DNA from: Phytohabitans aurantiacus
GTDB lineage: Bacteria; Actinomycetota; Actinomycetes; Mycobacteriales; Micromonosporaceae
Direction: 5' to 3'
Assembly: GCF_027923225.1 (NCBI RefSeq)
Contig: NZ_BSDI01000004.1
Location: 186,348-218,347, forward strand
Length of the DNA stretch: 32,000 bases
Part shown: one piece after another, positions 8,986 through 29,769 of the stretch
Numbering within the stretch: position 1 is the first letter of the stretch
Layout: every line of letters starts with the position of its first letter
Made by a program: the position numbers and the translations under genes
Notes under the pieces: model-generated
Seen by the model: the letters and a program-made list of their open reading frames with translations, nothing else
Told to the model about the DNA's origin: nothing
The model's database searches: none

Positions 8986-9950
8986 GTCGCGCTCCCGTCC
9001 GCCCACACGTCGGTGAACGCCAGCTCCCGGTCGGGCTCCGGCGCGTTCTTCGCGGCGGCAACGGCCGCCTCCACGACCTGTGCCACGCGCCGGTCCCGCT
9101 CCGCGATGGTTTCCGGTGGTACGCCGGCAGCCTCCAGCCGCGCCCTGGCCACGTCGAGCGGGTCGTGCTTGAGCCACCGCTCGACCTCTTCCGCCGGGCG
9201 GTACTTGGCCGGGTCGGACCGGCTGTGTCCAAAGTGGCGGTACGTCTGCGCCTCGATCAGTGTCGGGCCATCCCCTTTGCGGGCCCGCTCGGCCGCGCGC
9301 GCCACCGCTTCGTGCACCACGGTCACGTCGTTGCCGTCGATCACCTCGCCGGGGATGTTGTATCCGCCAGCACGGTCCGCCGCCGGGTTGGGCACCGCGG
9401 TCACGTCGGCGATCGGCGTGTACTCCATGTAGAGGTTGTTTTCGCAGACGAACAGGGCCGGCAGGCGCCACACCGCGGCCAGGTTGAGCGCCTCGTGAAA
9501 CGCGCCGATGTTGGTCGCGCCGTCGCCGAAGAAGGCGACGGCCACCTGGCCGGACCCCCGCAGCTTCGCGGACCACGCCGCGCCGGCCGCCATCGGCAGG
9601 TGCGCGCCGACGATGGCGTACGAGCCGAGCATCCCGGTCGACGCCTTGGTCAGGTGCATCGAGCCACCCTTGGCCTGGCACAGCCCAGTCGCCTTGCTCA
9701 TCAGCTCGGCGAGGCACTCCTCGGGTGTCGCGCCGCGCGCCATCGCGTGGTGGTGCCCGCGGTACGTGGCGAAGACGTAGTCGTCGGGGCGCAGCGCCGC
9801 GCTCGCACCCACCGCCACCGCTTCGTGGCCAGCCGCCAGGTGCGTGGTGCCTTTGACGAAACCCGCCATGAAGAGGTCGTGCGCGGCCTTCTCGGTGCGC
9901 CGGATCAGCGCCATCTCCTCGTAGGCGTCGAGCAGCTCGTCAGGAGTCAT
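8973..9950 (-). CDS. Thiamine-diphosphate-dependent 2-oxoacid dehydrogenase E1 component, alpha subunit
   Basis: From the ATG at 9950: MTPDELLDAYEEMALIRRTEKAAHDLFMAGFVKGTTHLAAGHEAVAVG....YRGH.H..ARG......AEL.....G.C..KGGSMH.. The TPP-binding motif is GDGATNIGAFHEALNLAAVWRLPALFVCENN. The start overlaps the M24 gene stop (ATGA at 9947-9950), and the stop overlaps the beta-subunit start by 13 nt. Confidence 0.9.
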   Translation of the reverse strand: MTPDELLDAYEEMALIRRTEKAAHDLFMAGFVKGTTHLAAGHEAVAVGASAALRPDDYVFATYRGHHHAMARGATPEECLAELMSKATGLCQAKGGSMHLTKASTGMLGSYAIVGAHLPMAAGAAWSAKLRGSGQVAVAFFGDGATNIGAFHEALNLAAVWRLPALFVCENNLYMEYTPIADVTAVPNPAADRAGGYNIPGEVIDGNDVTVVHEAVARAAERARKGDGPTLIEAQTYRHFGHSRSDPAKYRPAEEVERWLKHDPLDVARARLEAAGVPPETIAERDRRVAQVVEAAVAAAKNAPEPDRELAFTDVWADGSATWRT

Positions 9951-11260
9951 TGGGCGGCCCCATTTGATGTGTTCAGGTGTGACTGCGCGTGGCGCACCGT
10001 CTTCAGTGGACCACCAGCGGCGAAGTACCGGCGCCCGGCGATCAGCAGCTCCTCGGCGGGAAACTTCGTGATCAGCTCGCAGCCGTCGGCGGTCACCACG
10101 ACCTCCTCCTCGATGCGCGCCGCGGAGTACCCGTCGCCGGCTGGCCAGTACGTCTCCAGGGCGAAGACCATGCCCTCTTCGAGCACCTCCGGATGGTCCA
10201 GCGACACCAGGCGACTGAACACCGGCTTCTCCCAGATGGAGAGTCCGACGCCGTGGCCGTACTGGAGGGCGAACGCGGCCATCTCGTCGGGGAAGCCGAA
10301 CTCTTCCGCACGAGGCCACACCGACACGATGTCGGCCGTCGTGGCACCCGGTTTCACGAGCGCGATGGCCCGGTCCATGTACTCCCGGCAGCGCACGTAC
10401 GCGTCGCGCATCTGGGGCGAGGCGCTGCCCACCGCGAAGCACCGGTAGTAGCAGGTGCGGTAGCCGAGGTGGCTATGCAGGATGTCGAAGAACGCCGGGT
10501 CGCCAGGGCGCAGCAGGCGATCGCTGTAGACGTGCGGGTGGGGGGCGCAGCGCTCACCGGAGATGGCGTTGACGCCTTCGACGTACTCGCTGCCGAGGTC
10601 GTAGAGCACCTTGCTGACCAACCCGACGCACTCGTTCTCGCGTACTCCCGGGCGGAGGAACTCGTACAGCTCCTCGTAGGCGGCGTCGACCATCGCGCAC
10701 GCCTGCGCGAGCAGGCTGATCTCGTCGCGGGTCTTGATGCGCCGCGCCTCCAGAAACACCTGCTGTCCGTCCACGATGGTCAGACCCTCGGCCTGGAGCG
10801 CCGCGAGGACCGGCATCTCGACGAGGTCGACGCCGACCGGGGCGTCGGCGAGCCCGTGCTCGCGCAGCACGGTAGCGACCTTCGTGGCCACGTCGGCGGC
10901 GATCCCCGCGTCAGGGTGGAAGGCGCCGCGCAGCGTGGAGATGCCGGCGCGGGCGCGCTCGGTGCCGTCGAGCCACGGGTTGTAGAGCTGGTGGTGCCGG
11001 GCAGCCGAGCCGAAGTCCCAGATGACCGGCTCGCCGCCGCGCGGCAGCACCGCGAAGCGGATCAGCTTGTCCATCGCCCACGTGCCGATGTGGGTCGACG
11101 TCATGTACCGGATGTTGGCGAAGTCGAAGGTGAGCAGCGCGCCCAGCTCGGACGCTTCCAGATGGGTCTTCAGGCGGGACAGGCGCTCGGTGCGCAACCG
11201 GTCGAGATCGACGCGCTCTTCCCAGTCGACGGCGTTGGTCCCGAACGTACGAATTGCCAT
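9947..11260 (-). CDS. M24-fold (creatinase / Xaa-Pro peptidase-like) hydrolase, first structural gene of the operon
   Basis: 437 aa. The N-terminal creatinase-type domain (..RL.RL...L....L.ALL.FD..NIRY.T) is followed by a pita-bread domain (IKT.DEI.LL..A.AMVDAAY..L...L.PGV.ENE......K.L...G.E.V...N..SGER..PHPH...DR.LRPGD..F.DI......GYRTCYYR.F.VG......DAY..C.....A.AL.KPG.T..D......A.E.GF.......FA.QYGHG.GL..WE.P.......D....L.EGMVFALE.Y). Peptidase versus non-peptide substrate cannot be decided from sequence. Confidence 0.8.
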   Translation of the reverse strand: MAIRTFGTNAVDWEERVDLDRLRTERLSRLKTHLEASELGALLTFDFANIRYMTSTHIGTWAMDKLIRFAVLPRGGEPVIWDFGSAARHHQLYNPWLDGTERARAGISTLRGAFHPDAGIAADVATKVATVLREHGLADAPVGVDLVEMPVLAALQAEGLTIVDGQQVFLEARRIKTRDEISLLAQACAMVDAAYEELYEFLRPGVRENECVGLVSKVLYDLGSEYVEGVNAISGERCAPHPHVYSDRLLRPGDPAFFDILHSHLGYRTCYYRCFAVGSASPQMRDAYVRCREYMDRAIALVKPGATTADIVSVWPRAEEFGFPDEMAAFALQYGHGVGLSIWEKPVFSRLVSLDHPEVLEEGMVFALETYWPAGDGYSAARIEEEVVVTADGCELITKFPAEELLIAGRRYFAAGGPLKTVRHAQSHLNTSNGAAQ

Positions 11261-12828: not shown

Positions 12829-14043
12829 GTGTTCTACTTCTTTGTCAGTTATGCGCGGGGAAACGAAGACGACCTTGTTCGTAAGTTCTGCGCCGACCTG
12901 AGTATCGAGGTGCGCGTTCTCGCCGGCCTCCCTCGCGACGCCGAGGTCGGGTTCATCGACGCCGAGATGAGCCCCGGCACACGGTGGTCACGGCGGCTGG
13001 TCGACGCTCTCTCGACGTGCCGATCCTTCATCGCCCTGATGTCACCCCGCTACTTCTTGAGCCAGCACTGCGGCCAGGAATGGCAGATCTTCGCCGAACG
13101 ATCGTTGCGGTACGAGCAAGCAACGGGAACTGATCCCTCGTTGCTGAAGCCGCTCTTCTGGGTGCCGGTTCCGCGCGGCAAGATGCACCCAGCGGCGCTT
13201 CGCATACAGTTCGCCGATCAAGAGGACGACACCTGCCTGCGGCAGATGATGCGGCTAAAACGCCACGAAGACGCGTACAAGGAATTTCTCTTCAATCTGG
13301 CGAGCCAGATCGTCAACGCAGCCGATCAACATGACATTCCCAACGGCGTCACCTATTCCGATCTCGAGTCCGTGCCGAGCGTCTTCCACCATACGCAGGC
13401 GGTCATCAACGGGGTCCCCGCCAACGAACTGATCGACGCGACGACCGTCCACTTCGTCGTGGCGGCCCCTACACGCAACGAGGCCATGGCGATTCGCGCG
13501 GAATCCACCACCTACGGCGACCGGCGGCGCGACTGGGCGCCCTACCACCCTTCGTGGCCCGATCCACTGAGCGACTACGCGATCAGCATCGCCGCGAGCC
13601 GGAACTTCCTCACGCGCGTGGCGGACCTGGAGGAACTGGGCGAGCGCGCGGCGATCGCCAGTCAGCAGAACCACATCGTCGTGCTACTGGTCGACGCGTG
13701 GATCACCCGCCTGCTCGGCCCACTTGGTCTGCTCACTGCGTACGGGGGCCGTCCCGGAGCACCACGGAACCCCACGACGGTGGTGCTGGGGCCTGCCTCG
13801 GACGGTGACGAGGAGACCCGCGACCAGTGGCCAGCGCTGTCAGAGACCTGGACGGCGACCGCCGGCGGTCTGGCACCGGCCAACGACCTGTCCCGCTGGG
13901 GGATCTCCACGTACCACGACTTCGCCCGCGACCTACCGGCGGCGCTCGAAGTAGCCATGAACCGGGTCTTCGCTAGCGGCAACGTCCGCCGTCAGCCCCT
14001 GAACACCTTCCACATCGAGCGGCCCACGCTCGACCCACCTTGA
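12829..14043 (+). CDS. fxsC: TIR-like protein FxsC (N-terminal TIR-like domain + FxsC C-terminal domain) of the FxSxx-COOH system
   Basis: From the GTG at 12829 (GGAGG RBS 4 nt upstream): VFYFFVSYARGNEDDLVRKFCADLSIEVRVLAG...FIDAEMSPGTRWSRRLVDALSTCRSFIALMSPRYFLSQHCGQEWQIF. This shows the TIR hallmarks FFxSYA and SxxYxxSxxCxxE. The remaining ~270 aa (..HFVVAAPTR.E.......YG....DW.PY......PL.DYA..IA......T.V..L.......A...N.IVVLLVD.W) match what I recall of the FxsC C-terminal family. The track ORF start (TTG 12682) adds 49 unlikely residues. Confidence 0.8.
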   Translation: MFYFFVSYARGNEDDLVRKFCADLSIEVRVLAGLPRDAEVGFIDAEMSPGTRWSRRLVDALSTCRSFIALMSPRYFLSQHCGQEWQIFAERSLRYEQATGTDPSLLKPLFWVPVPRGKMHPAALRIQFADQEDDTCLRQMMRLKRHEDAYKEFLFNLASQIVNAADQHDIPNGVTYSDLESVPSVFHHTQAVINGVPANELIDATTVHFVVAAPTRNEAMAIRAESTTYGDRRRDWAPYHPSWPDPLSDYAISIAASRNFLTRVADLEELGERAAIASQQNHIVVLLVDAWITRLLGPLGLLTAYGGRPGAPRNPTTVVLGPASDGDEETRDQWPALSETWTATAGGLAPANDLSRWGISTYHDFARDLPAALEVAMNRVFASGNVRRQPLNTFHIERPTLDPP

Positions 14044-14081
14044 TCGAGATCGCGAGGTCCACCACCTGAGGAGGCCCGGCC

Positions 14082-17000
14082 GTGACCGCACGCGCAACCG
14101 CCTCGCCAGCCGACTCCGCACCGGCCGGCGGCACCATCATCACCTTTTACTCGTACAAGGGTGGCACCGGGCGCACCATGGCCATGGCCAACGTCGCGTG
14201 GATTCTCGCCAGCAACGGCCTGCGCGTGCTCATTGTCGACTGGGACCTGGAGTCGCCTGGCCTTCACAAGTACTTCCACCCCTTCCTCACTGACAAAGAC
14301 CTGCGCGCCTCCGCCGGTGTCATCGACATGATCCGCGGTCACGCGGAGGCGATGATGCGGCCGATACACGACACCGAGACCACGCAGTGGTTGGAGACCC
14401 ACGCCGACGTGCTGTCCTACGTCCTCCCCGTGGAATGGTCCTTCCGGGACAAGGGATTCATCGAGCTGCTGCCGGCCGGCCAACAGGACAGTTCCTATAC
14501 CGAGACGGTGCGGACGTTCGACTGGACGGCCTTCTATGAACGCCTGGCCGGAAACGCCTTTCTGGAGGCTTTGGCCCGCAACATGCGCGCCAACTACGAC
14601 TACATCCTCATCGACAGCCGCACCGGAGTGAGCGACGCCGCGGGCATCTGCACCGTCCTACTTCCGGACTCTGTCGTGGATTGCTTCACCATGAACGCGC
14701 AGAGCATCGACGGCGCGGTCGCTATCGCTCACTCCATCGTCCGTCAGCGGGTCGAGCGACCGGTGCGGATACTGCCGGTGCCCATGCGCGTCGAGGATGC
14801 CGAACAGGTCAAGTTGGACGCCGGTCGCGATCACGCTCGGCAGAACTTCGCGCCCTTCCTGGGACGCGACCCGGAGGAGGTCAACCGGTACTGGGGTGAC
14901 ATCGAGATCCCCTACAAGTCCTTCTATGCCTACGAGGAGATACTCGCTCCGTTCGGCGACCGGTCACACCAGGAAGGATCGCTCCTTGCCGCGTACGAAC
15001 GGCTGACCCGGATCATCACCAGGAGCCAGGTGCAGCAGGTCGACGCGATCGAAGAGCGGGTACGCCGCCGGTGGCTGGCTGCGTTCGAACGCCGCCGCAC
15101 CGCCGGCGCGCTGGACATCTTCATCAGTTACGCGGCCGTCGACCGAATGTGGGCGGAATGGATCGCCGGGGAGGCGAACGACGCCGGCCTCCGAGCGAGT
15201 ATGCGGGAGATCGACTCCCAGCCGTTCCCCGAGCCGGGCAACGATCCGCCGAGCTTCCTGAGCAACACCAGCCGCGCGATCGTGCTGCTCAGCGAGGATT
15301 ACATCGCGTCGGTGAAGTCGGCCACGACGTGGAAGACCCTCGCGGCTCGCGAGCCCGTGGGCGGTCGCCCGTTCATCGTTCCGCTCCGTCTGGACAACGT
15401 GCGCCTGGAGGCGCCGTTCGACGAGCACATACCCATCGACCTCAGCGGACTGCACGAGCAGCGAGCCATCGACGTCGTACGCGAGGCGCTCCAGCAGCCC
15501 GTATACCCGCGATCCGCGACGCCGACCGAACCAGACGCACCGCGACGCCGCTTCCCTGCGACAGAGCCCCCACTGTGGAGCGTTCCCCAGCGCAACGGCA
15601 CGTTCACGGGCCGGCGACGTGCGTTGGAGGCGCTGCGCAACCGGATGGCTGCGTCTGGCTCGATGGCGAATCCTCAGGCGCTCCACGGCCTTGGCGGCGT
15701 CGGAAAGACCCAGATCGCCCTCGAATACGCGCACCGCTTCAAGGCGGACTACGACATCGTCTGGTGGGTCTCGGCTCAGCAGACGAGCCTCGTGCGCGCC
15801 TCGCTGTCGAACCTCGCGGATGCGCTCGGTCGACGCGCGGGCGAGAGCGTGACGGAACGGATCCGGTCCGCGCTAGAGGCGCTCCGGCAAGGTGTCCCGT
15901 ATCGACGCTGGCTGATCATCTTCGACAACGCGGACGATCCCGACGAGCTTCGCGAGTACGTGCCTCAGGGGCATGGCCACGTCCTGGTCACCACCCGGGA
16001 CAACGCCTGGTCACGCGTGGCGCAGATGGTGGACATCGGCGTGTTCGGACGCGAGGAGAGCGTGGCTCTCCTCCAGCGCCGGATTCCCAATCTTCCCACC
16101 GCCGACGCGGAGACGGTCGCGGAGCGGCTGGGCGACCTGCCACTCGCCATCGAGCAGGCTGGTGCCTGGCTTGCAGCGACAGCGATGCCGGTGTCCCACT
16201 ACCTCGAACTGCTCGAAACGCAACCCCTCCGGATGTTGGAGGAGGACCTACCGTCCGACTACCAGCAGAGCGCGGCCCAGCCATGGCTCGTCTCGCTCGA
16301 CAGCCTGCGCCAGCGCAGTCCCGCCGCCGCCAAGTTGCTGGAGGTGTGCGCGTTCTTCGCTTCCGAACCAATCCCAATCTCACTGCTCTACAGTGACCGC
16401 TTCATCAGCATGCTTCTCCCGTTCGACCCCTCGTTACGCGAGCGAATGCTGATGGCCAAGGCGATCAGAGAGATCAGCCGGTACGCGCTCGCACGCGTCG
16501 ACACGGGTAGACCAGCTGTTGGATCACAGCGCCGGGCGAGCGACCGGAGTGACGAGGGTGGGCAGAGTATCCAACTGCACCGTCTCATGCAGGCCGTCAT
16601 CCGCGCGCGACTCAGTCCCGACGAGCGTGACGAGAACCGCAAGCACGTCCATGAGATCCTGGCAGCCGCCAATCCGGACGGCCCCGACGAGCCTGAGAAC
16701 TGGCCAACCTACGCCGAGCTGTGGCCACACCTGCTGCCGTCCAAGACGCTCGACTCGGACCTGCCGGACGTCCGGCAACTCGTCTACGACATGTGTCGCT
16801 ACATGTGGAAGAGCTACGACTACCCGACCAGCCAATTCCTTGCCGAGCAGGCCGTCGAGAAGTGGGAGGAGGCATTCGGCGCCGATGACCCGCTCACCCT
16901 CATGATGCGCTTCAACCTGGCCACCGCCCTTCGCCTCCAGGCCAACTACACGCCTGCCTACGAGATCGACCGGGACATCTATGCCCGGCTCGGTCGTGTC

Positions 17001-18089
17001 GTCGGCGAGGACCATCCATACACGCTGATGGCGGGCGGCAACCTTGCCGCCGACCTACGCGCCCGCGGTGAGTTGCACGAGGCGCACAGGCTCGATGAGG
17101 CGATCGAGGCGCGGTGGCGGGAGACCTTCGGCGACGACTATCCACGCACCCTGATCGCGGGACACAACCTCGCGGTCTCACTCCGCCTCATCGGCAACCT
17201 GCAGGACGCGCTGCGGCTTCAGGAACGGATCCTGCGACTCCGCCGCGCGGTGCACGGCGATCAGCATCCGTACACGCTGTACTCGTCCAGCAACTACGGA
17301 CGGGATCTGCGCGACACGGGCGATCTGCGGGAGTCGCACCGCGTACTTGAGACTGCGTTGGAACGGCACCGGCGTGTGCTCGGCGAGGATCATCCGGAGA
17401 CCCTCCGGACGGCGAAGAACCTCGCGGTGACGCTACGCAAGCTGGGCGAGTTCGAGCGGGCGCACGCACTGAGCGCCGAAACCCTGGAAGGGTCGCAAAG
17501 GCTGTTCGGTCCTCACCACCCCGACACCCTGGCGTGCGGCATGAACCTCGCCTGCGACGAAGCGGCTCTCGGCCACGACCGGAACGCACGACGACGCGCC
17601 ACACCCATCGTCGACCTCTCCCGCCAGACCGGCGGCGAAAACCACTTTGCCACCTTGGCCTACGCCAACAACCTGGCGATCTTCATGCGTAAGACCGGTG
17701 ACGCCGCCGGCGCACACAGCATCACGACCGATGTGATCAACCGTTTTATGGCGACGGTCGGCCACGAACATCCCTACACACTCGCTGCCCTGCTCAACAA
17801 CGGCAACGACGACTACGACCTGGGCAACTATGCCGAGGCCCGGTCGTCCGACGAACGCGCCTACGCGGAGTTCACGCGGGTCCTGGGGCCCGAGCATCCG
17901 GACACGCTGGCGGCCGCCAGCAATCTCGTGGCCAGCCGCAGGGCCGATGGCGATCCGGGCGCGGCACGCGAACTGTTGGCCGGGATACTGAACACCTACG
18001 ATCGCGTGCTAGGTGCGCACCACCCCAATACCATCGCCGCGCGGGAAGGTCGCCGGCTCAGCTGCGATCTGGAACCACCACCTACCTGA
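14082..18089 (+). CDS. fxsD: FxsD-type multidomain STAND protein: variant ParA/MinD-like ATPase (KGGTGRT) + TIR-like domain + NB-ARC NTPase + C-terminal TPR array
   Basis: 1335 aa. Residues 17-330 read IITFYSYKGGTGRTMAMANVAWILASNGLRVLIVDWDLESPGL...ILIDSRTG.SD, a ParA/MinD fold with Arg in place of the P-loop Lys. Residues 344-460 read LDIFISYAAVDRMWAEWIAGE...AIVLLSEDYIAS (TIR-like). Residues 505-700 read FTGRR..L..L......GLGGVGKTQIALEYAHR...YDIVWWV......LIIFDNADD....VLVTTRD......GDLPLAIEQAGAWL (NB-ARC Walker A/B, RNBS, GLPL). Residues ~900-1320 hold about ten TPR_10/12-type repeats (..GEDHPYTL....NLA..LR..G....A..L). Confidence 0.85.
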   Translation: MTARATASPADSAPAGGTIITFYSYKGGTGRTMAMANVAWILASNGLRVLIVDWDLESPGLHKYFHPFLTDKDLRASAGVIDMIRGHAEAMMRPIHDTETTQWLETHADVLSYVLPVEWSFRDKGFIELLPAGQQDSSYTETVRTFDWTAFYERLAGNAFLEALARNMRANYDYILIDSRTGVSDAAGICTVLLPDSVVDCFTMNAQSIDGAVAIAHSIVRQRVERPVRILPVPMRVEDAEQVKLDAGRDHARQNFAPFLGRDPEEVNRYWGDIEIPYKSFYAYEEILAPFGDRSHQEGSLLAAYERLTRIITRSQVQQVDAIEERVRRRWLAAFERRRTAGALDIFISYAAVDRMWAEWIAGEANDAGLRASMREIDSQPFPEPGNDPPSFLSNTSRAIVLLSEDYIASVKSATTWKTLAAREPVGGRPFIVPLRLDNVRLEAPFDEHIPIDLSGLHEQRAIDVVREALQQPVYPRSATPTEPDAPRRRFPATEPPLWSVPQRNGTFTGRRRALEALRNRMAASGSMANPQALHGLGGVGKTQIALEYAHRFKADYDIVWWVSAQQTSLVRASLSNLADALGRRAGESVTERIRSALEALRQGVPYRRWLIIFDNADDPDELREYVPQGHGHVLVTTRDNAWSRVAQMVDIGVFGREESVALLQRRIPNLPTADAETVAERLGDLPLAIEQAGAWLAATAMPVSHYLELLETQPLRMLEEDLPSDYQQSAAQPWLVSLDSLRQRSPAAAKLLEVCAFFASEPIPISLLYSDRFISMLLPFDPSLRERMLMAKAIREISRYALARVDTGRPAVGSQRRASDRSDEGGQSIQLHRLMQAVIRARLSPDERDENRKHVHEILAAANPDGPDEPENWPTYAELWPHLLPSKTLDSDLPDVRQLVYDMCRYMWKSYDYPTSQFLAEQAVEKWEEAFGADDPLTLMMRFNLATALRLQANYTPAYEIDRDIYARLGRVVGEDHPYTLMAGGNLAADLRARGELHEAHRLDEAIEARWRETFGDDYPRTLIAGHNLAVSLRLIGNLQDALRLQERILRLRRAVHGDQHPYTLYSSSNYGRDLRDTGDLRESHRVLETALERHRRVLGEDHPETLRTAKNLAVTLRKLGEFERAHALSAETLEGSQRLFGPHHPDTLACGMNLACDEAALGHDRNARRRATPIVDLSRQTGGENHFATLAYANNLAIFMRKTGDAAGAHSITTDVINRFMATVGHEHPYTLAALLNNGNDDYDLGNYAEARSSDERAYAEFTRVLGPEHPDTLAAASNLVASRRADGDPGAARELLAGILNTYDRVLGAHHPNTIAAREGRRLSCDLEPPPT

Positions 18090-18093
18090 CCCG

Positions 18094-19848
18094 TCAAACC
18101 GCCAGACACTCCACTGGCTCCAGCCAGGTCGCAAGCTCCAAAGGGTCGACCGTCCCGTCGCCCGTGCCGCTGAGTTCGCGATGGACCGCCATGCAGAGCT
18201 CCGGAAAGCGCAGTCGGGGGGCGTCGGGATCGCGTTGGCAGGCGAGAGCCAGCCCGATCCACGCGTCCACGCGATCGGTCGCCACGATCTCGGCCGCGTA
18301 CGCCCGACGCGCCGCGGGCAGATCACCCGCCGCCAACGCAATGTCGCCAACCGTCGCGTTCTCCCCCGCGGACAGCGCGGCGAACCGCGCGGGCTCGACG
18401 ATCCGCAACCGAGCCAGATCCAGGCGGGCGCTGCGCGTCAGCATCCGCCCGGCGCGCACCGTTTCCGTCGGCACCGGATCGCGAGGGCAGGGCATGCTCG
18501 CCTGCCAGGCAGACGCCAACCGCCGCACGGCGGCCGTCTCCGGCAGCCGGTTCCGTAGCTGCCAACCCACCCTGTGGTCGTCGGCGGCCTCCGCCGCCAT
18601 CGCCACAGTCACGGCATCGGCTGCCTCCTGCTGCCACGGCGATTGCGCGGCCCGCATCCCAGCAAGGAATTCCAGACCCAAGGACGTGAAGCGCCCCGAC
18701 GCTTCGAGGATGTCGAGCGTCCGCCACACGCGATCCCGCCAGCGTACGAACTCGACCTGGGCGAGCTGGCCGGGCCCTTCGGTCAGCAACCGCCGCTGCA
18801 CCCGCCAGAAATCCACGACACCGTGGAAGGCATACGCGCCTTGCAACAAAGCGCCGAGCGGACGGGGATCGTCGCGCCAGGGCGCATAGTGCCGTGGCCG
18901 GTCGTCCCTCTCGTACAGCGGCTGTATGTCGAGCAGCCCGCCGAGCTTCGCGTGCTGGAACTCGTGCAACAAGCCCAAGGCGAGCGCACGGCCGTTGACG
19001 GGCGGCGTCAGCGACACCGCCCCGAACGCCTCCATGCTCGTGACGTTCATGCCGTGATCGGGCCGCTCGCTGTGCAGCGGGACGATCGTCGTCAGGCCCG
19101 CGGCGATCGCCTCGGCGTACGAGCGGTGGTGCTCCACCAGAATGGGCCACGCGTCGTCCAAGAGCCGCTGCCAATGGCGGATGTCATCGTCGCTCAGCCG
19201 TCCCTCGGCGCCTAGTTGGTGGCAGTCGCGAAACGGATCGACATCGTCCACGGACAGCTCGATGCGCAGATCGGTGGCGGCACAGCGCAGGCGACGGACT
19301 GCCTGCCAGCCGCCCGCACTGTGCTCGATATGTTCCGGTACGACCACGGTCCCCAGCTGAGTGCGCCCGCCGATGTGCTCCAGACTGGCGGTGTGCGCAT
19401 CACCCAGGATCGCACGCCCGAGCCCCGGCAGGGTGACGCTGCCGCCGTACACCTTGACCTCGAACTTCGCGTCGACACCCGCCGTCATGGCGGCCACGAG
19501 CGCGACGCCGGCCATGTATTCGAGGCGTGCTTCCAGGCCGCCTTGGGCCTCGGATCCACCGCGGACCGCGCGCAGTGTGGCCGTCAACCACGCGCCAACA
19601 TGCGGCTGGAGCAGCAGTAGGCGTACGGCGGCCGGGGACCGGCGCTCGGCCGCCACCAGCACGTCGAAGTACTCGGCGATTCTGGCCGACCGCGCAGCGG
19701 CCACCAGCTGGCCGAGCATCAGTTGTCGCCTGCTCACCTGCGCGGCGCGGAGTCTGCCCACGATCCGGCCATCGCCGAGGCCGCTGGCAAGGGCCGCGAA
19801 GTCGGCGCTATCGAGGCGATGCGTCGTTTCCGGCGTCAGGAGTTCCAT
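18094..19848 (-). CDS. HExxH-motif protein of the Fxs system (putative peptide-modifying metalloenzyme; this family has been assigned as 2-oxoglutarate-dependent peptide beta-hydroxylases)
   Basis: The motif LGLLHEFQHAKLGGLLD has its HEFQH codons at 18952-18966. The N-terminus MELLTPETTHRLDSADFAALASGLGDGRIVGRLRAAQVSRRQLML looks like the conserved start of HEXXH-domain partners of FxsB. I chose the ATG at 19848. The track start at 19998 would overlap fxsB by 190 nt and adds a low-complexity, non-homologous stretch. Confidence 0.8.
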   Translation of the reverse strand: MELLTPETTHRLDSADFAALASGLGDGRIVGRLRAAQVSRRQLMLGQLVAAARSARIAEYFDVLVAAERRSPAAVRLLLLQPHVGAWLTATLRAVRGGSEAQGGLEARLEYMAGVALVAAMTAGVDAKFEVKVYGGSVTLPGLGRAILGDAHTASLEHIGGRTQLGTVVVPEHIEHSAGGWQAVRRLRCAATDLRIELSVDDVDPFRDCHQLGAEGRLSDDDIRHWQRLLDDAWPILVEHHRSYAEAIAAGLTTIVPLHSERPDHGMNVTSMEAFGAVSLTPPVNGRALALGLLHEFQHAKLGGLLDIQPLYERDDRPRHYAPWRDDPRPLGALLQGAYAFHGVVDFWRVQRRLLTEGPGQLAQVEFVRWRDRVWRTLDILEASGRFTSLGLEFLAGMRAAQSPWQQEAADAVTVAMAAEAADDHRVGWQLRNRLPETAAVRRLASAWQASMPCPRDPVPTETVRAGRMLTRSARLDLARLRIVEPARFAALSAGENATVGDIALAAGDLPAARRAYAAEIVATDRVDAWIGLALACQRDPDAPRLRFPELCMAVHRELSGTGDGTVDPLELATWLEPVECLAV

Positions 19849-21031
19849 CTTGGAGTCGTCCTTTGAGTACAGCGGCAAGATCGGCGTGAACGCGAGGAAG
19901 CACGTGACGAATGAGGCGACCAAGGTCAGCGCAGTAGACCGATGGATTACGGAAGCCCGTCTCCGCACGGTACCGGTGCGGATAGTAGCCGCCACCACAT
20001 ATCCGATGCAGCGGACAGGCCAGACAATCGTCGGAAAGTGCGTCTAGGCCGATCTGCCGGTCTTGGATCTCGGGGTGCTCCAGCACCTCGTCAAGGCTGT
20101 GGTCGAAGACGTTCATGCCGGTGTCGACAGCGCCTGGATACGTGGACCGCAGGGTGTCGATCTGCTCGTACGCGCCGTCGACGTCCACGACGACGGTCGC
20201 CACGGGGCTGAGGCCGATCGTCTCGATGCGGCTTGTGCCGCCCAGCGCTAGGCTGATTACTTCTTCGAAGAATCGAACGCGCGTTTCCCGAACTGGCGCG
20301 TCGTACCAACGATCGAAGGCGGCCACCAGCCAGTCGCCGTAGAGCGTGTCCCCCGCCGACCATCGCGGCGGAGGACTCGTCCAGTTCCCGTGCGGCAGCA
20401 GAAAGTCGATGGCGGGCGGATCATACTGGAGCAGACTGTCGAATGTAGATACCGGGTCGTTGTCCAGGTCGATGACGCTGAGGATGCCAGCGAAGTGTTC
20501 CGGACGAAGGCGCAACGAGCGCAGTGCCCGGTCCACCGCATCGAAGGAACTGCGACCGTTGGCGTACCGCCGATGCCGGTCGTTCGCCCGGCGGTCTCCG
20601 TCCAGGCTTACGCCGATGCGGATGCCTGCCTGGCACAAGCGATCGATCACGCGGTCGTCGAGCAGGACGCCGTTGGTCTGGACTGTGATGTCCACAATGG
20701 CCTGTGGTGCGACGGCGGCACGCACCCGGTCGGAAGCGCGCACAAGAGCGTCCACACCGACCATCATGGGCTCACCGCCGTGCAGCACGACCCGAAGCGG
20801 TCGCCCCGTATCGCCGACATGGTCGGCAATCCGTTCGCATACCCGATCTAGCACGCGGTCCGACATGGCCGAATTGACCTGTCGCCAAGCCGTGTCGGCC
20901 AGTTCGTACATGTAGCAGTAGTCGCAAGCCAGGTTGCACCGGGTGTGGAGCTTGAGCACGAACTCACGGAACGGCGTCCGCCGACGGTCGTGGGCTCGGA
21001 CCAGTGGCACAGCTACATGGCCGAGTTCCAA
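19808..21031 (-). CDS. fxsB: FxsB-family radical SAM / SPASM peptide maturase (cyclophane-forming)
   Basis: PFREFVLKLHTRCNLACDYCYMYE carries the CxxxCxxC radical-SAM cluster (codons at 20915-20938), and VVLHGGEPMM follows. The C-terminal SPASM-like Cys cluster reads DDCLACPLHRICGGGYYPHRY....G..NPSVYC. The start is either the TTG at 21031 (19-nt overlap with fxsA) or the GTG at 21010 (2 nt after the fxsA stop). Confidence 0.85.
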   Translation of the reverse strand: MELGHVAVPLVRAHDRRRTPFREFVLKLHTRCNLACDYCYMYELADTAWRQVNSAMSDRVLDRVCERIADHVGDTGRPLRVVLHGGEPMMVGVDALVRASDRVRAAVAPQAIVDITVQTNGVLLDDRVIDRLCQAGIRIGVSLDGDRRANDRHRRYANGRSSFDAVDRALRSLRLRPEHFAGILSVIDLDNDPVSTFDSLLQYDPPAIDFLLPHGNWTSPPPRWSAGDTLYGDWLVAAFDRWYDAPVRETRVRFFEEVISLALGGTSRIETIGLSPVATVVVDVDGAYEQIDTLRSTYPGAVDTGMNVFDHSLDEVLEHPEIQDRQIGLDALSDDCLACPLHRICGGGYYPHRYRAETGFRNPSVYCADLGRLIRHVLPRVHADLAAVLKGRLQDGTPDAGNDASPR

Positions 21032-21183
21032 CCAGCGACCGCGTCCTGCGGCCGGTCAATATCTTCTAGGATCCGGCGCAGGGAATGAGCGACGACTGAA
21101 CCGCCCAGCCTGGATAAGTCAGACAGACTGAGACCACTCAGATCAACCAGCTCAGGCTGGTTGTCATCAACCGTTGCATCCAC
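21013..21183 (-). CDS. fxsA: FxSxx-COOH-family RiPP precursor peptide (56 aa, C-terminus WNSAM), not in the supplied ORF track
   Basis: My translation of the minus strand from the GTG at 21183 gives MDATVDDNQPELVDLSGLSLSDLSRLGGSVVAHSLRRILEDIDRPQDAVAGWNSAM* with a TAG stop at 21015-21013. An in-frame TAA lies 4 codons upstream, so this GTG is the first possible start. An AAGGG RBS lies 6 nt upstream. The ORF sits immediately 5' of fxsB, and the last five residues fit aromatic-x-S-x-x-COOH. Confidence 0.75.
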   Translation of the reverse strand: MDATVDDNQPELVDLSGLSLSDLSRLGGSVVAHSLRRILEDIDRPQDAVAGWNSAM

Positions 21184-21454: not shown

Positions 21455-23185
21455 GTGGCCCAGCCGAACGACCCGACCCAGCATCGTCCCGCCATCAACG
21501 CGCTCAGGCTCGGAATCACCGTGACGGCAGTCGTGTCCCTCCTGCTCGGCTATCTGGGACTGGACGCGTTCCTCAGCGGCTCTGATCAATACGGAAATAG
21601 GCCGATCGACCTCCTGTACTACGACGTCCAACTCTTCGTCCTGGGTGCCGACCCGCTCCAGCAACCCGGTCCCTACCCCTTGCTCCTTGAGATAGCTCGC
21701 CTGACAGCACCGCTGGCGACCATCACCGCTCTCGTGGAGGCGGCGCGGCTGCTCTTCGCCACCGAACTGCGAAGACTCCGCGCCCGGCGTGCTCGCGGTC
21801 ACGTCATCGTGTGCGGCGACACCTCGCTGGCCGGAATCCTCTCCCGCCGTCTCCATGCCGCTGGCCGGCGAGTCGTTCACGTACGAGCACAAGCCGAAGC
21901 CGTCCCGCCGAGTCCGTCGTATCCATTGATCGTGGTTGGCGACGCCCGGGACGCGGGCACCCTGACCGCCGCGGGGCTGAGCCGCGCCACCGCCCTGTAC
22001 GCCTGCGCGCACGAAAGCGCGACCAACATCGCCATCGGCCTGGCTGCTGGCCGTGAACGCCGCCTCCAGGGGCCGTCGCTGCCGATCTATACGCATGTGC
22101 CAGACCCGGACCTGTGCCTTACCCTGCAGGCCAGGTATCTCGGACTGCCGAATCCGCCCGGGGCTCGGCTCGACTTTTTCAACGTCGACGATCTGGCGGC
22201 CCGCAAGGTATTTCTGGAAGATCCGCTCGAGCCGGAGGTCAGGCCCCGGCAGTACATCCTGGTGGCTGGAACGACGCCGTTCGGACAAGCGCTCGCTGTG
22301 GAGGCTGCCCGCCATTGGCGACGAAGGCTCGCTCCGGATCCGAGTACCCGCCTCCGCATCGCGATCGTGGCCAGGAACGCCACCGAGACGCTCGCCAATC
22401 TCGCCCACCGCTATCCGTTTCTTCGACTCTCCTGTCGTCTCGACGCATACGACGCCGACCTCGTGGACATCCTGGCCACCGAGCTGGATGAGGCGCCCGA
22501 CCGCGCCTACATCTGTTACGCCAACGAAGAACGCGCCCTGAAAGCGGCACTTACCGCAGACCGGTACTGGCGAGGACGGAAGAACTGTGTCGTAGTGCGA
22601 CTGGACCAGCTCGCGGATTTCTCCGACGACGGTGGACTCGCCAGCCAGCTGCTCGACGACGGCCCTGCGCGGCTGCGGGTGTACGGCGTTCTGCGCGCCG
22701 CCTGCGATCCCGGGATGATCGCCGAAGATCTCGTGGAGCGCTTGGCTCGCGTCATCCACGACCGCTACCTGGTCGCGCGTCGCTCGCACGGCCAAGCCGA
22801 CAACTCCAGCCCGTCGATCGTTTCGTGGGAACGGTTGCCGCCGGAGCTGCGGCAGACCAACCGGGCACAGGCGGAGGACATCGGGCGGAAGTTGAGGGCC
22901 ATCGGTTATGTGCTCGTGCCACGGATGCGTGAGTCAGCAGATGAGGAAAGCATGAACGAGAACGAGATCGAACGGCTGGCGATGATGGAGCACGAACGGT
23001 GGTGCCTCGACCGCTTGGCGGCGGGTTGGCGCTACGGCGAGCGCCGTGATGACATCCGCAAGCTGCATCCGGCGCTTTGCGATTGGAGCAATCTCCCGCC
23101 GGACATCCGGGAGCGCAACCACGACGCCGTGCGAGAGGTACCTCTGATCCTCTCGGACGCCGGCTTCCAGCTGGTTCGGATCTGA
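21455..23185 (+). CDS. Membrane-associated protein with two Rossmann (TrkA-N-like NAD-binding) domains and two C-terminal RyR (ryanodine-receptor-type) domains
   Basis: The hydrophobic N-terminus reads LRLGITVTAVVSLLLGYLGLDAFL. Rossmann beta1-loop motifs are GHVIVCGDTSLAGILSRRLHAAGRRVVHV and QYILVAGTTPFGQALAVEAA. Two RyR repeats occupy ~22724-23182: ERLARVIHDRYLVARR......SIVSWERLPPELRQTNRAQAEDIGRKLRAIGYVL and ERLAMMEHERWCLDRLAAGWRYGERRDDIRKLHPALCDWSNLPPDIRERNHDAVREVPLILSDAGFQL. I prefer the GTG at 21455 (GGAG RBS 7 nt upstream) over the track ATG at 21338. Confidence 0.75.
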   Translation: MAQPNDPTQHRPAINALRLGITVTAVVSLLLGYLGLDAFLSGSDQYGNRPIDLLYYDVQLFVLGADPLQQPGPYPLLLEIARLTAPLATITALVEAARLLFATELRRLRARRARGHVIVCGDTSLAGILSRRLHAAGRRVVHVRAQAEAVPPSPSYPLIVVGDARDAGTLTAAGLSRATALYACAHESATNIAIGLAAGRERRLQGPSLPIYTHVPDPDLCLTLQARYLGLPNPPGARLDFFNVDDLAARKVFLEDPLEPEVRPRQYILVAGTTPFGQALAVEAARHWRRRLAPDPSTRLRIAIVARNATETLANLAHRYPFLRLSCRLDAYDADLVDILATELDEAPDRAYICYANEERALKAALTADRYWRGRKNCVVVRLDQLADFSDDGGLASQLLDDGPARLRVYGVLRAACDPGMIAEDLVERLARVIHDRYLVARRSHGQADNSSPSIVSWERLPPELRQTNRAQAEDIGRKLRAIGYVLVPRMRESADEESMNENEIERLAMMEHERWCLDRLAAGWRYGERRDDIRKLHPALCDWSNLPPDIRERNHDAVREVPLILSDAGFQLVRI

Positions 23186-25342: not shown

Positions 25343-26362
25343 GTGATTCACCTACCCACCGCAGCACGGGGACCACTCCGGGCACTCGCGCTGCGCCTGG
25401 TCGCCGCCATCGGACTGGTCCTCTTCATCGTCTTCGTGGTCTATCTCGACCGAGACGGATATCGTGACGGCGACGACACGAGCGGTTTGACCCTGCTCGA
25501 CTGCTTCTACTACACGGTGGTGTCGCTGTCGACCACCGGTTACGGCGACATCACGCCAATCACGCCCCAGGCCCGGCTGGTAAACGTCCTCGTGGTCACG
25601 CCGGCACGAGTACTGTTTCTGATCATCCTGGTCGGCACCACACTCGAGGTGCTGACCGAGCAGTACCGGACCAACGCACGCCTCGCGCGGTGGAGAAGGC
25701 ATTTGAAGGACCACGTCATCGTCTGCGGGTACGGGACGAAAGGGCGCAGCGCCGTGGGCGCACTGCGCGAGAGCGGCTTCGACGTCAAGCGCATCGTCGT
25801 GGTCGAGTCGGACCGCCCGTCGGTGCGGCGAGCCGCCGCCGACGGCCTGGTCGCCATCGAGGGATCGGCAACCCAGTCGACCGTGCTGACGGACGCGCAC
25901 ATCAAGGACGCCAAGGCGGTCATTGTCGCGACCGACACCGACGAGGCTTCGGTACTGGTCACCCTGACCGCGCGGCAGCTCACGGCCGGCAAGGTGCGCA
26001 TCATCGCGGCGGCTCGGGAGGCGGAGAACGCACCGCTGCTCAAGCAGAGCGGCGCTCACCAGGTGATCGTCTCGTCGGCGACGGCCGGGCGCCTGCTGGG
26101 CCTCTCGACGTCGGCGCCGCCGCTCATCGACGTCGTCGAAGACCTGCTGACCCCGGGCGCGGGCATGGCGCTCGCGCTGCGCTCGGCGGCCCGCGACGAG
26201 GTGGGGCGCTCGCCGCGCGAGGTGACCGAGCCGGTCATCGCGCTGGTGCGGCTGGGCCGGATCATCTCGCTGGCCATGCCCGAAAGCGCCAAGATCGAGA
26301 CTGGTGACCTGCTGGTCTACATCCGCGACGACCGCCCGAGCCCGGTGACCGCCTCAGCCTGA
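25343..26362 (+). CDS. Two-TM K+ channel with cytoplasmic TrkA-N/TrkA-C (RCK) gating domains
   Basis: The pore and selectivity filter read DCFYYTVVSLSTTGYGDITP, flanked by TM helices LRLVAAIGLVLFIVFVVYL and VLVVTPARVLFLIILVGTTL. RCK-N is HVIVCGYGTKGRSAVGALRESGFDVKRIVVVE, and an RCK-C-like tail follows. I prefer the GTG at 25343 (GAGGA RBS 5 nt upstream). The track ATG at 25298 is the alternative. Confidence 0.8.
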   Translation: MIHLPTAARGPLRALALRLVAAIGLVLFIVFVVYLDRDGYRDGDDTSGLTLLDCFYYTVVSLSTTGYGDITPITPQARLVNVLVVTPARVLFLIILVGTTLEVLTEQYRTNARLARWRRHLKDHVIVCGYGTKGRSAVGALRESGFDVKRIVVVESDRPSVRRAAADGLVAIEGSATQSTVLTDAHIKDAKAVIVATDTDEASVLVTLTARQLTAGKVRIIAAAREAENAPLLKQSGAHQVIVSSATAGRLLGLSTSAPPLIDVVEDLLTPGAGMALALRSAARDEVGRSPREVTEPVIALVRLGRIISLAMPESAKIETGDLLVYIRDDRPSPVTASA

Positions 26363-28300: not shown

Positions 28301-29700
28301 TCCCGACTGCCGTAGAGGGTGCGGCCCTCGTCGGTCATCGCCTTGGAGAGCCGGCGGGTCAGGTGCAGGCCCTCCAGCACGAACTCGATCCCGGCCGCGG
28401 CCTGCCCGGCGTTGGGCGCGTCGTCGAAGCCCAGCCGCTCCAGCACCTTGGCCAGGCCGGGCACGGTGCCCACCTGGCGCAGCAGGTCGGCCGCACCCAC
28501 CAGATCGCCGGTCTCGACGATCGCGCCGTCGGCGACCAGATCGGTGAAGCCCGACAGGTCGAGCCCGCCGAGCCTGGCCCGGAACGTCTCGGCGCTGGCC
28601 GTGCGCAGCAGGTGCGCCAGTACCTCGATCTCGCGGCCCTCTTCGCCGCTCTCGAACTCGACCTTGCCGCGCAGCGTGCTCACCACGGACGAGGTGTCGC
28701 CCACGCGCGCCACCGCCTCGCGCTCGCCGAGCAGGCCCGCGCGGCGCAGCGCGGAGGCGGCCACGGTCTCGGCGCCGGCGATCGCGAACCGTGCCGACAC
28801 CCCGGAGCGGGCGTCGACCGAGGGCGAGTCGCGAACCGCGCGGGCGAACCGCGCCACCACCTCCAGGACGTGCTCGGGCACCTCGGCGACGAGCTGCGCC
28901 TCCTGGCGTACCAGAGCCAGCTCCAGATCGAGTTCGAGCGGGTAGTGAGTGCGGACCTCGGCACCGAACCGGTCCTTCAACGGCGTGATGATCCGGCCGC
29001 GGTTGGTGTAGTCCTCGGGGTTGGCGCTCGCGACGAGCAACAGGTCGAGCGGCAGCCGGAGCTGGTACCCGCGCACCTGGATGTCGCGCTCCTCCAGCAC
29101 GTTGAGCAGCGACACCTGGATGCGCTCGGCGAGGTCGGGCAGCTCGTTGACGGCGAAGATGCCGCGGTTGGTGCGGGGTACGAGTCCGAAGTGGATGGTC
29201 TCCGGGTCGCCGAGGGTGCGGCCCTGTGCCACCCGGATCGGGTCGACGTCGCCGATCAGGTCGCCCACGCTGGTGTCGGGCGTGGCCAGCTTCTCGCCGT
29301 ATCGCATCGAGCGGTGCAGCCAGCTCACCGGCAGCTCGTCGCCTAGCTCCTCGACCAGCCGCCGGGACGCCGGGGTGAGCGGGTGGTACGGGTGCTCGTT
29401 GAGCTCGGAGCCGGCGATCACCGGCGTCCACTCGTCCAGCAGCTCGACCAGTGAGCGGATGACCCGGGTCTTGCCCTGACCGCGCTCGCCGAGCAGGACC
29501 AGGTCGTGGCCGGCGAGCAGGGCCCGCTCGACCTCGGGCAGCACGGTGCCGTCGTATCCGACGATGCCCGGGAACCGGGGCGTGCCGTCGCGCATCCGGG
29601 CCAGCAGGTTTTCGCGCAGCTCCTGCTTGACCGTGCGGTGCTCGTGGCCGCTCGCGCGCAGCTCACCCAGGGTGCGGACCGTGTTTGGCAATGAGGTCAC
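28297..29700 (-). CDS. AAA+ ATPase of the Mg-chelatase ChlI / MoxR-like clade
   Basis: 467 aa with a GTG start at 29700. Walker A is HDLVLLGERGQGKTRVIRSL and Walker B / sensor is RGIFAVNELPDL.ERIQVSLLNVLEERDIQVRGY.LRLPLD.LLVASANPEDYTNRGRIITPLKDRF. This family is commonly annotated as magnesium chelatase-like ATPase and is paired with a VWA protein. Confidence 0.85.
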   Translation of the reverse strand: MTSLPNTVRTLGELRASGHEHRTVKQELRENLLARMRDGTPRFPGIVGYDGTVLPEVERALLAGHDLVLLGERGQGKTRVIRSLVELLDEWTPVIAGSELNEHPYHPLTPASRRLVEELGDELPVSWLHRSMRYGEKLATPDTSVGDLIGDVDPIRVAQGRTLGDPETIHFGLVPRTNRGIFAVNELPDLAERIQVSLLNVLEERDIQVRGYQLRLPLDLLLVASANPEDYTNRGRIITPLKDRFGAEVRTHYPLELDLELALVRQEAQLVAEVPEHVLEVVARFARAVRDSPSVDARSGVSARFAIAGAETVAASALRRAGLLGEREAVARVGDTSSVVSTLRGKVEFESGEEGREIEVLAHLLRTASAETFRARLGGLDLSGFTDLVADGAIVETGDLVGAADLLRQVGTVPGLAKVLERLGFDDAPNAGQAAAGIEFVLEGLHLTRRLSKAMTDEGRTLYGSRE

Positions 29701-29731
29701 CGGCCAACGCTAGCTCGCTGGTGTTACGAGG

Positions 29732-29763
29732 CTGGTGGGCCCGCGGAAAAGCGGACCCACCAG
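29732..29763 (-). terminator. 13-bp stem hairpin 6 nt downstream of the S8 protease stop (terminator candidate)
   Basis: ctggtgggcccgc (29732-29744) pairs with gcggacccaccag (29751-29763) across a 6-nt loop. There is one mismatched position (C opposite A on the plus strand, G opposite U in the minus-strand transcript). It lies between the S8 gene end and the AAA+ gene start. Confidence 0.5.
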
Positions 29764-29769
29764 CGGCTC

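Follow-up and report, generated by a model that had tools for sequence, protein, structure and literature searches.

A complete fxs locus in Phytohabitans aurantiacus and the modular pairing of its peptide and TIR/STAND arms

We analysed a stretch of 32,000 nucleotides from Phytohabitans aurantiacus (the window) and found that positions 12829-21183 carry five unbroken genes in two convergent arms, fxsC-fxsD on the plus strand and fxsA-fxsB-HExxH on the minus strand. This locus is a complete, intact copy of the catalogued actinobacterial FxSxx-COOH (fxs) system in its 'standalone' form, which joins genes for a peptide made on the ribosome and modified after its translation (RiPP) to a TIR protein, FxsC, and a TIR-NB-ARC-TPR protein of the STAND class, FxsD. 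Our comparison of 72 loci reveals two couplings. One ties the peptide arm to the NB-ARC-DUF7779-TPR module of FxsD, independent of what this module is fused to, and the other ties FxsC to the ParA-like and TIR head of FxsD, independent of the sensor. In the alignments, the putative catalytic Glu is kept in FxsC and lost from the FxsD TIR domain wherever the peptide arm is present. The best model that we can offer, to which we assign slightly less than an even chance, is that the modified tail of FxsA would be read by the TPR array of FxsD, gating a STAND switch that recruits the FxsC NADase.

The initial annotation had recognised the five genes, their convergent arrangement and their domain vocabulary (TIR, NB-ARC/STAND, TPR, ParA-like), all of which are borne out by open reading frames, NCBIfam cut-offs and Pfam. 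It had also called the system-level coupling of these genes undescribed, and this claim of novelty was overstated, because both the coupling and its reading as a conflict system were published in 2020 in the part of Kaur et al. that deals with peptide processing (PMC7159879), and NCBIfam names all five genes as one system. The value of the finding is tempered by this. What is new here is the two-way modular pairing, the restriction of the catalytic Glu to FxsC, the occurrence of FxsC in peptide-free VMAP systems, and the unlinking of the two arms in P. kaempferiae.

The five genes and their products

Proteins of the window were scored with NCBIfam profiles at their curated cut-offs, with Pfam for domains and with PADLOC-DB v2 for defence families. 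The cut-offs of the fxs system are exceeded by all five products, namely FxsA (TIGR04268), FxsB (TIGR04269), the alpha-ketoglutarate-dependent (aKG) HExxH protein (TIGR04267), FxsC (NF040588 and TIGR04276) and FxsD, the FxSxx TPR protein (NF040586), and five of five matches place the locus far beyond chance (Table 1). The same layout is present in Micromonospora sp. CPCC 206061, where it is collinear with the window at about 88.6% nucleotide identity, and recurs in M. taraxaci (locus L064). An identical contig with an independent public gene call was included in the comparison as L072; positions 11455-32000 of the window agree at 100% with a contig assembled from run DRR350998.

Packing at the locus is tight. 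The stop codons of fxsD and of the HExxH gene lie on opposite strands with 4 bp between them (18089-18094), and no terminator-like hairpin was found at this junction, promoter and terminator scans being of little use in high-GC DNA. The convergent transcripts should therefore overlap, unless they end inside the opposite gene. The start of fxsB overlaps fxsA by 19 nt.

Table 1 Positions of the fxs genes and of the domains and motifs of FxsC and FxsD. Nucleotide positions are those of the window; residue ranges (aa) are given where the feature was located in the protein.
Feature	Position	Strand	Description
fxsC	12829-14043	+	404 aa; FxsC_Nterm 135.9 bits (cut-off 130), FxsC_Cterm 106.5 bits (cut-off 55)
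FxsC TIR domain	aa 1-170	+	FxsC_Nterm, Pfam TIR_2
FxsC predicted catalytic Glu84	13078-13080	+	CGQEW motif
FxsC-specific C-terminal alpha/beta domain	aa 203-385	+	FxsC_Cterm
fxsD	14082-18089	+	1335 aa; FxSxx_TPR 1012.7 bits (cut-off 300), AAA_KGGVGR 144.9 bits (cut-off 90)
FxsD ParA/MinD-like domain	14133-14735	+	AAA_KGGVGR; Walker A KGGTGRT at 14157-14177
FxsD TIR-like domain	15117-15452	+	Pfam TIR_2 (1e-15); SATTW at 15318-15332, Thr at the Glu position
FxsD NB-ARC (STAND) NTPase and DUF7779	15624-16625	+	Pfam NB-ARC (7.9e-11), DUF7779 (2.1e-5)
FxsD C-terminal TPR_10/TPR_12 array	16659-18089	+	Pfam TPR_12 (5.7e-51), eight stretches
aKG-HExxH gene	18094-19848	-	open reading frame open to 19998; mod_HExxH 160.7 bits (cut-off 40)
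fxsB	19808-21031	-	FxsB family 450.3 bits (cut-off 370)
fxsA	21013-21183	-	56 aa; FxSxx-COOH 35.3 bits (cut-off 28)

FxsC couples its TIR domain to a C-terminal domain of its own. The CGxEW motif, including Glu84, is invariant across 22 FxsC homologues, and from a match by eye we take it to correspond to the WCLxEL catalytic-Glu helix of plant TIRs. The AlphaFold2 (AF2) model of the protein has a predicted local distance difference test score (pLDDT) of 79, and its N-terminal domain is matched by Foldseek to the plant TIRs RUN1, RPP1 and L6 with a probability of ~1. Modelled alone, the C-terminal domain forms a five-stranded alpha/beta fold (pLDDT 86.7, predicted template-modelling score 0.83). 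Placing it in a known family was rejected: the Foldseek matches, to TIR-, flavodoxin- and dehydroquinase-like folds, are weak (best E = 1.2e-2), and a profile search of the PDB gave nothing relevant. We call it, weakly, a flavodoxin/TIR-like fold on the basis of the model and go no further.

FxsD is built, by Pfam, from a ParA-like domain, TIR_2, NB-ARC, DUF7779 and an array of TPR_10/TPR_12 repeats in eight stretches, with the FxSxx_TPR match (NF040586) spanning residues 501-1335. The P-loop Lys of the ParA-like domain is replaced by Arg, the motif KGG[TSAV]GR[TS] is invariant in 62 FxsD-like proteins, and FxsD scores far below the cut-offs of ParA, MinD and similar equivalog models; this domain therefore has a ParA-like fold but is not ParA. 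The NB-ARC domain, on the other hand, carries a Walker A motif GGVGKT (residue 538, 15693-15710) and a Walker B motif IIFDNADD (residue 612, 15915-15938), both intact and conserved across homologues. FxsD thus has the build of a STAND protein, with Walker A and B motifs, then DUF7779, then the TPR array.

The TIR domain of FxsD differs from that of FxsC at the position of the Glu. In the 62 FxsD-like proteins this column holds Leu (19), Val (19), Phe (9), Thr (5), Trp (4), Glu (4) and Ala (2), so that 58 of 62 are without Glu. Only L038, L041 and L061, all of which are without the radical SAM arm, have a Glu at the right place ahead of the conserved Trp, and the fourth Glu (L037) belongs to a poorly aligned, degenerate TIR domain. 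The position is hydrophobic or Thr in every locus with a radical SAM arm. The alignments thus indicate an asymmetry in predicted catalytic capacity between the two TIR proteins that coincides with the presence of the peptide genes.

FxsA ends in GWNSAM, the core W-N-S-A-M-COOH being encoded at 21016-21030, and its leader contains a conserved L..RR(I/V) motif. FxsA-like reading frames with a [FW]x[SN]xx end are found in more than 40 related loci, including most of the FxsB-positive ones, while fxsA itself is absent from the public gene call on L072. For fxsB the same call takes ATG 20911 as the start, which is downstream of the CX3CX2C motif (residues 32-39, 20915-20938) and would cost the protein its radical SAM cluster ligands. 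The true start therefore lies upstream, and ATG 20911 is probably a mis-annotation. With SPASM-type Cys residues at 336, 339, 345 and 367, and lying near YhhB and XyeB by NCBIfam score, FxsB is a predicted cyclophane-forming radical SAM/SPASM maturase; FxsB is named among the radical SAM-SPASM enzymes reported to form cyclophanes (PMC10114670).

The HExxH protein carries its motif as HEFQH at 18952-18966, residues 345-349 of the long reading frame. Its most likely start is ATG 19848, which gives a protein of 584 residues and agrees with the independent call on L072. Membership of TIGR04267 predicts an aKG-dependent peptide hydroxylase. The aKG-dependent peptide beta-hydroxylase chemistry of the family is attributed to Morishita et al. 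2024 in the citations of PMC12912966 and PMC12636437, and in the same context relatives of the enzyme are described as also cleaving peptide backbones, oxidatively or hydrolytically.

Co-occurrence of the arms and their modules

FxsC loci were collected by pattern and tblastn searches at one genome per species, which gave 62 loci, and features were counted in 10-kb flanks. Most of these loci belong to Micromonosporaceae and Streptomyces, with one from a metagenome-assembled genome (MAG) of the Planctomycetales. A KGGxGR ParA-like FxsD lies directly downstream of FxsC in 61 of the 62, and the NB-ARC-DUF7779-TPR part accompanies FxsC in 57. FxsB is found within 10 kb of FxsC in 50 loci and an HExxH gene in 47. 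There are few FxsB genes per 8-10 Mb genome, which makes this linkage of FxsC and FxsB far higher than chance would give; co-conservation of fxsC/D with fxsA/B, raised by the initial annotation, is thus supported. Two gene orders account for 24 co-directional loci (fxsA-B-HExxH-C-D, including all Streptomyces) and 23 convergent ones as in the window.

Loci in which one of the partners is missing resolve the linkage into two couplings. FxsC and FxsD occur without fxsA and fxsB, for example at L003, L020, L038, L041 and L043. L003 and L020, both from Phytohabitans, are syntenic with the left flank of the window, and L038, L041 and L061 are divergent Micromonosporaceae pairs from two Micromonospora genomes and one Micromonosporaceae MAG. 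In two Streptomyces loci (L037 and L040) the sensor is swapped for a NACHT domain with a hydrophobic tail, and in the Planctomycetales locus (L043) FxsC stands with a ParA+TIR head whose sensor is nSTAND1+WD40; none of these three has a peptide arm. FxsC therewith follows the head of FxsD across different sensors.

The peptide arm, in turn, follows the sensor. fxsA and fxsB occur without fxsC/fxsD at L063 and L065-L067. Five FxsB loci outside the FxsC set were sampled (L063-L067), and 4 of the 5 (L064-L067) carry a homologue of the NB-ARC-DUF7779-TPR part of FxsD, with identities to the window protein of 43-56% (NB-ARC), 29-57% (DUF7779) and 33-56% (TPR). Among the FxsB loci without FxsC, 3 of 4 adjoin such a homologue (Nonomuraea, Nocardiopsis and Gandjariella; 43-50%, 29-40% and 33-39% for the same three parts). 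The fusions of the module vary: a ParA+TIR head in M. taraxaci (L064), a TIR-only head in Gandjariella (L067), no extra head in the 864-residue protein of Nocardiopsis (L066), and in Nonomuraea (L065) a 1406-residue TPR protein followed by MoxR and VMAP genes. True linkage of fxs arms to VMAP is seen at L065 and L067.

The two arms can also be separated within one genome. In P. kaempferiae, fxsC and fxsD are on L020 and fxsA-B-HExxH stands alone on another contig (L063), at a site syntenic with the right flank of the window.

FxsC is also used where no peptide genes are present. Its C-terminal domain is rare, with 243 cluster representatives in 1.84 billion proteins (E <= 1e-3), and lies nearly always directly behind a TIR domain in a protein of ~400 residues. 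The longer exceptions are fusions that carry the entire FxsC module behind a SAV_2336-type N-terminal domain, which is the vWA component in VMAP ternary systems. One of these fusions closes a Trypco1-VMAP-MoxR ternary system as its last gene and has no fxsA/B in its neighbourhood. A 1566-residue protein annotated as 'TIR-like protein FxsC' is encoded on a mobilisable plasmid of Streptomyces sp. NBC_01460 (L069, NZ_CP109474, 31122-35822), behind an AAA ATPase and beside an integrase and a Tn3 transposase, again without fxsA/B; this setting indicates that the module is mobile in its own right. Because the module is used in peptide-free systems, we regard FxsC as a portable conflict-system effector and not as a RiPP tailoring enzyme. 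Two other ideas about FxsC were rejected. Long proteins containing the module (850-976 residues) are not HExxH-FxsC fusions, since they show no BLASTP similarity to the HExxH protein and are the SAV_2336 fusions, and a phage origin finds no FxsC relative in IMG/VR.

Two arrangements from the survey may be recorded separately. On the chromosome of Phytohabitans suffuscus (~5.67-5.69 Mb, L033/L035) a single fxsA-fxsB pair lies between two complete FxsC-FxsD pairs that point towards each other, with no HExxH gene detected there, and the two sensor/effector pairs seem to share this one peptide arm. At L020, an extra TIR-NB-ARC-TPR protein of 788 residues (15321-17687, plus strand; FxSxx_TPR 581.7 bits) is encoded directly after FxsD.

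A peptide-gated switch and competing explanations

We arrive at the model stated at the outset from the modular pairing, the absence of export functions and the asymmetry of the residues. It takes up a hypothesis of the initial annotation, that the peptide is read by the TPR array and switches a TIR effector; this hypothesis fits the co-occurrence pattern best. FxsA would be made as a 56-residue precursor, on which FxsB, by the chemistry of its family, would form a three-residue cyclophane at the C-terminal W-N-S, and the aKG-HExxH enzyme would hydroxylate the tail and possibly trim it. The modified peptide would stay inside the cell, where its C-terminal tail could be bound by the DUF7779-TPR array of FxsD, the proposed peptide sensor. 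Occupancy of the array would set the nucleotide state of NB-ARC and its oligomerisation, and the oligomer would offer its presumably dead TIR domain and ParA-like head as a platform. This platform would recruit and activate FxsC, leading it to cleave NAD+ or to produce a signal derived from NAD, with growth arrest or death of the compartment as the outcome upon infection or a developmental or stress cue. The peptide may activate the switch, or it may hold it off so that a failing peptide supply fires it.

Several observations weigh against this model. Full FxsC/FxsD pairs with TPRs stand without a radical SAM arm within 10 kb at L003, L038 and L041, and together with the unlinked arms of P. 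kaempferiae they indicate that the pairing is not obligatory in cis. In eleven of the loci FxsA carries extra residues after the FxSxx motif, from 1-2 up to ~30, as in ...SSFDSALPPDTASRP... in several Streptomyces. The FxSxx motif thus does not stand at a free C-terminus in all cases, which argues against simple recognition of such an end unless the tail is trimmed; it is conceivable that the HExxH enzyme does so. The catalytic Glu is a prediction from sequence alignment and a by-eye motif match, as distinct from a residue-level structural superposition. The locus sits amid metabolic genes in conserved synteny, with no recognisable defence island. Finally, none of the validated defence families of PADLOC-DB v2 is matched: FxsC and the HExxH protein have zero hits, and the only matches are those of the FxsD ParA-like domain to the candidate PDC-M28B (5e-23) and, through a distant generic radical SAM resemblance, of FxsB to viperin models.

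The strongest competitor, though in our judgement an unlikely one, is that the peptide is the output of the system, with STAND and TIR proteins sensing an invader or stress and modified FxsA released as a toxin or amplifying signal to neighbouring hyphae. This was put forward in the peptide-processing part of Kaur et al. (PMC7159879), and it would suit the hosts, which are filamentous, multicellular actinomycetes; the arms also occur on VMAP ternary systems with protease instead of TIR effectors (L065 and L067), where the peptide could be a shared accessory output. It calls for a way out of the cell, however, and the five genes and their conserved neighbours offer neither an exporter nor a signal peptide or lysis gene. 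NCBIfam and Pfam likewise show no transporter, signal peptide or classical protease among the five genes. The initial annotation was thus right that a transporter and classical leader peptidase are missing from the locus, and its own alternative of an exported signal lacks the export genes that it would need. The proposal further assumed, in that part of the paper, that the HExxH protein is a releasing peptidase, whereas NCBIfam now has an aKG-dependent hydroxylase, though relatives can cleave backbones. The peptide arm follows the TPR sensor module and no particular effector, which makes a ligand-receptor pair more natural than an output.

Less probable still is a role of FxsC and FxsD in tailoring or as a scaffold, in which the TPR array would hold the cyclophane peptide while the FxsC TIR domain transfers ADP-ribose to it from NAD+, yielding an ADP-ribosylated triceptide. 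The putative catalytic Glu is kept in FxsC, and TIR domains can pass ADP-ribose to acceptors other than water. A precedent exists in minviopeptin, where the NAD+-using enzyme MicD acts after cyclophane formation (PMC12912966), but MicD belongs to the ADP-ribosyltransferases (ARTs) instead of the TIRs, and mic is a cluster of another kind than fxs. The FxsC module is found in VMAP systems, as well as beside WD40 or NACHT sensors, at loci without a precursor or radical SAM gene, and this is also why the maturation scaffold considered in the initial annotation is disfavoured. Conversely, fxsA, fxsB and HExxH genes occur without FxsC, and known tailoring enzymes feature neither a STAND NTPase switch nor a ParA-like domain.

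That the arms are independent neighbours, an ordinary RiPP cluster and a STAND/TIR conflict module sharing a variable chromosomal spot, would account for the unlinked arms of P. kaempferiae, for genomes with either arm alone and for the inserted look of a lower-G+C block whose flanking genes stand next to or near each other in relatives that lack it, but it is very improbable given FxsB within 10 kb in 50 of 62 FxsC loci, in two gene orders and in both Streptomycetaceae and Micromonosporaceae, the NB-ARC-DUF7779-TPR homologue beside 3 of 4 FxsB loci that have no FxsC, and the 4-bp stop spacing and overlapping starts.

If the peptide-gated switch is right, the cell makes its own chemically unusual 'key' to a TIR-driven death or arrest switch, and a RiPP would serve as an intracellular second messenger or guard signal. 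To our knowledge there is no experimentally established precedent for a RiPP in such a role. RiPP clusters are nearly always interpreted as routes to exported natural products, and STAND/TIR proteins as detectors of foreign molecules; the fxs system joins the two. The more specific claim that an NLR-like TPR sensor has the cross-linked peptide as its dedicated intracellular ligand, or that the TIR partner even transfers ADP-ribose to this peptide, we consider doubtful. Should the modified peptide prove to be the ligand of the sensor, it would be the first RiPP to act as an internal signal for an NLR-like switch, and a bacterial TIR pathway would thereby gain an agonist or antagonist that is encoded by the host and of defined chemistry.

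Chromosomal setting and relation to known systems

The fxs block has a G+C content of 0.663 against 0.694 and 0.693 in its flanks, and third-position GC is 0.73 in fxsB and 0.61 in fxsA against 0.85-0.92 in the neighbours. With this lower G+C, and with flanking genes that are adjacent or close in fxs-free relatives, the block looks inserted. An M24 peptidase (9947-11260), an XRE-cupin regulator and a DUF3105 protein make up the left flank. The right flank holds genes for a RyR/TrkA_N protein, an SDR, a cupin, a K+ channel, a vWA protein, a MoxR-like protein and an S8 subtilase. The M24 peptidase and the S8 subtilase (29770-31701) were considered as the missing leader peptidase and rejected, being present by synteny only, in 4 and 2 of 67 loci.

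The RyR/TrkA_N membrane protein (21455-23185, plus strand) is encoded divergently from fxsA. It begins with two hydrophobic helices, continues with a TrkA_N/RCK NAD-binding domain and ends in a RyR domain, and it is identical to a protein that NCBI assigns to Phytohabitans aurantiacus. Its gene stands beside fxs genes in seven loci; in three distant ones (L007, L016 and L018) it has fxsB on one side and fxsC on the other. In M. polyrhachis and M. pisi it lies next or close to an M24 peptidase with no fxs genes between. Given these two genomes, we set the protein aside as a sixth component; its adjacency to fxs is probably synteny around the insertion site, although a functional tie to a TIR product is conceivable.

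An apparent operon on the minus strand (26354-31701) encodes the S8 subtilase, with FG-GAP repeats, a MoxR-like AAA+ protein (28297-29700) and an Rv0959-type vWA protein (26354-28303). In P. kaempferiae (L063) the MoxR-like/vWA pair likewise adjoins fxs genes, and in M. taraxaci (L064) its immediate neighbour is fxsC. At 5-8 kb from the locus it was considered as a VMAP ternary partner and rejected: no VMAP gene was found, and it is a syntenic Rv0958/Rv0959-like pair. At ~31869-32000 (plus strand) begins a further NB-ARC/TPR gene that runs off the end of the window, encodes more than 777 residues on L072, and thus places a second STAND-type protein ~10 kb from fxs.

Among known systems the closest relatives are those of Kaur, Burroughs, Iyer and Aravind 2020 (eLife), whose account of peptide processing (PMC7159879) describes FxSxx peptide-processing genes coupled to TIR/AP-ATPase/TPR proteins. 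In that account the FxSxx peptide, the HExxH protein and the radical SAM-SPASM enzyme are attached to vWA-MoxR-VMAP ternary systems, and a 'standalone' actinobacterial form has an extra inactive MinD/ParA-like domain. The window shares with the standalone form, as described there, the peptide, the HExxH and radical SAM-SPASM proteins, and the TIR, NB-ARC and TPR protein with a ParA-like domain of altered P-loop. It differs from the VMAP-type systems of the same account in that the window yielded no VMAP gene. A separate FxsC protein is present in the window, and it has no mention in the peptide-processing section of that paper. The HExxH protein is a zincin peptidase in that section and an aKG-dependent hydroxylase in NCBIfam. 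The literature that we searched contains no experimental study of the function of FxsC, FxsD, KGGVGR or PDC-M28, in agreement with the initial annotation, which knew of no established role for FxsC or FxsD. Measured against the curated fxs system, gene content is identical to that of the Streptomyces and Micromonosporaceae loci; the arms are convergent here and co-directional in 24 of 50 loci, including all Streptomyces, and the core residue is Trp (GWNSAM) instead of Phe.

With the triceptide RiPPs (XyeB, GrrM, FxsB, ChlB and the fused radical SAM-aKG-HExxH enzymes) the locus shares an aromatic-X-X motif, W-N-S, and membership of the FxsB family. In triceptides the radical SAM enzyme forges a C-C bond from the aromatic ring of residue 1 to the beta-carbon of residue 3, and for the window this cross-link is a prediction. 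The characterised triceptide clusters are treated as natural-product pathways, and STAND/TIR partners are not discussed in the triceptide literature examined. The minviopeptin (mic) cluster, whose radical SAM enzyme MicB was found by mining with the daropeptide synthetase PasB as query, uses the ART MicD to modify the triceptide only once the cyclophane has formed (PMC12912966). Both mic and fxs physically link a cyclophane RiPP pathway to an NAD+-consuming enzyme (in fxs, a predicted one). MicD has an ART fold instead of TIR, however; mic is without a STAND, TPR or ParA-like protein, and MicC is a different aKG enzyme.

The architecture of FxsD, finally, is that of STAND/NLR immune sensors. 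Avs/AVAST, bNACHT, TIR-STAND and plant TNL proteins have in common with fxs the order of effector head, STAND NTPase and repeat sensor, together with a TIR bearing the putative catalytic Glu and sensors that can be swapped (TPR, WD40 or NACHT-type among fxs relatives). In contrast to these sensors, the presumably catalytic TIR of the fxs system is on a separate protein, the TIR fused to the STAND module is without the Glu, and a ParA-like domain is added. The candidate ligand would be host-encoded and modified by the products of adjacent genes, rather than made by a phage.

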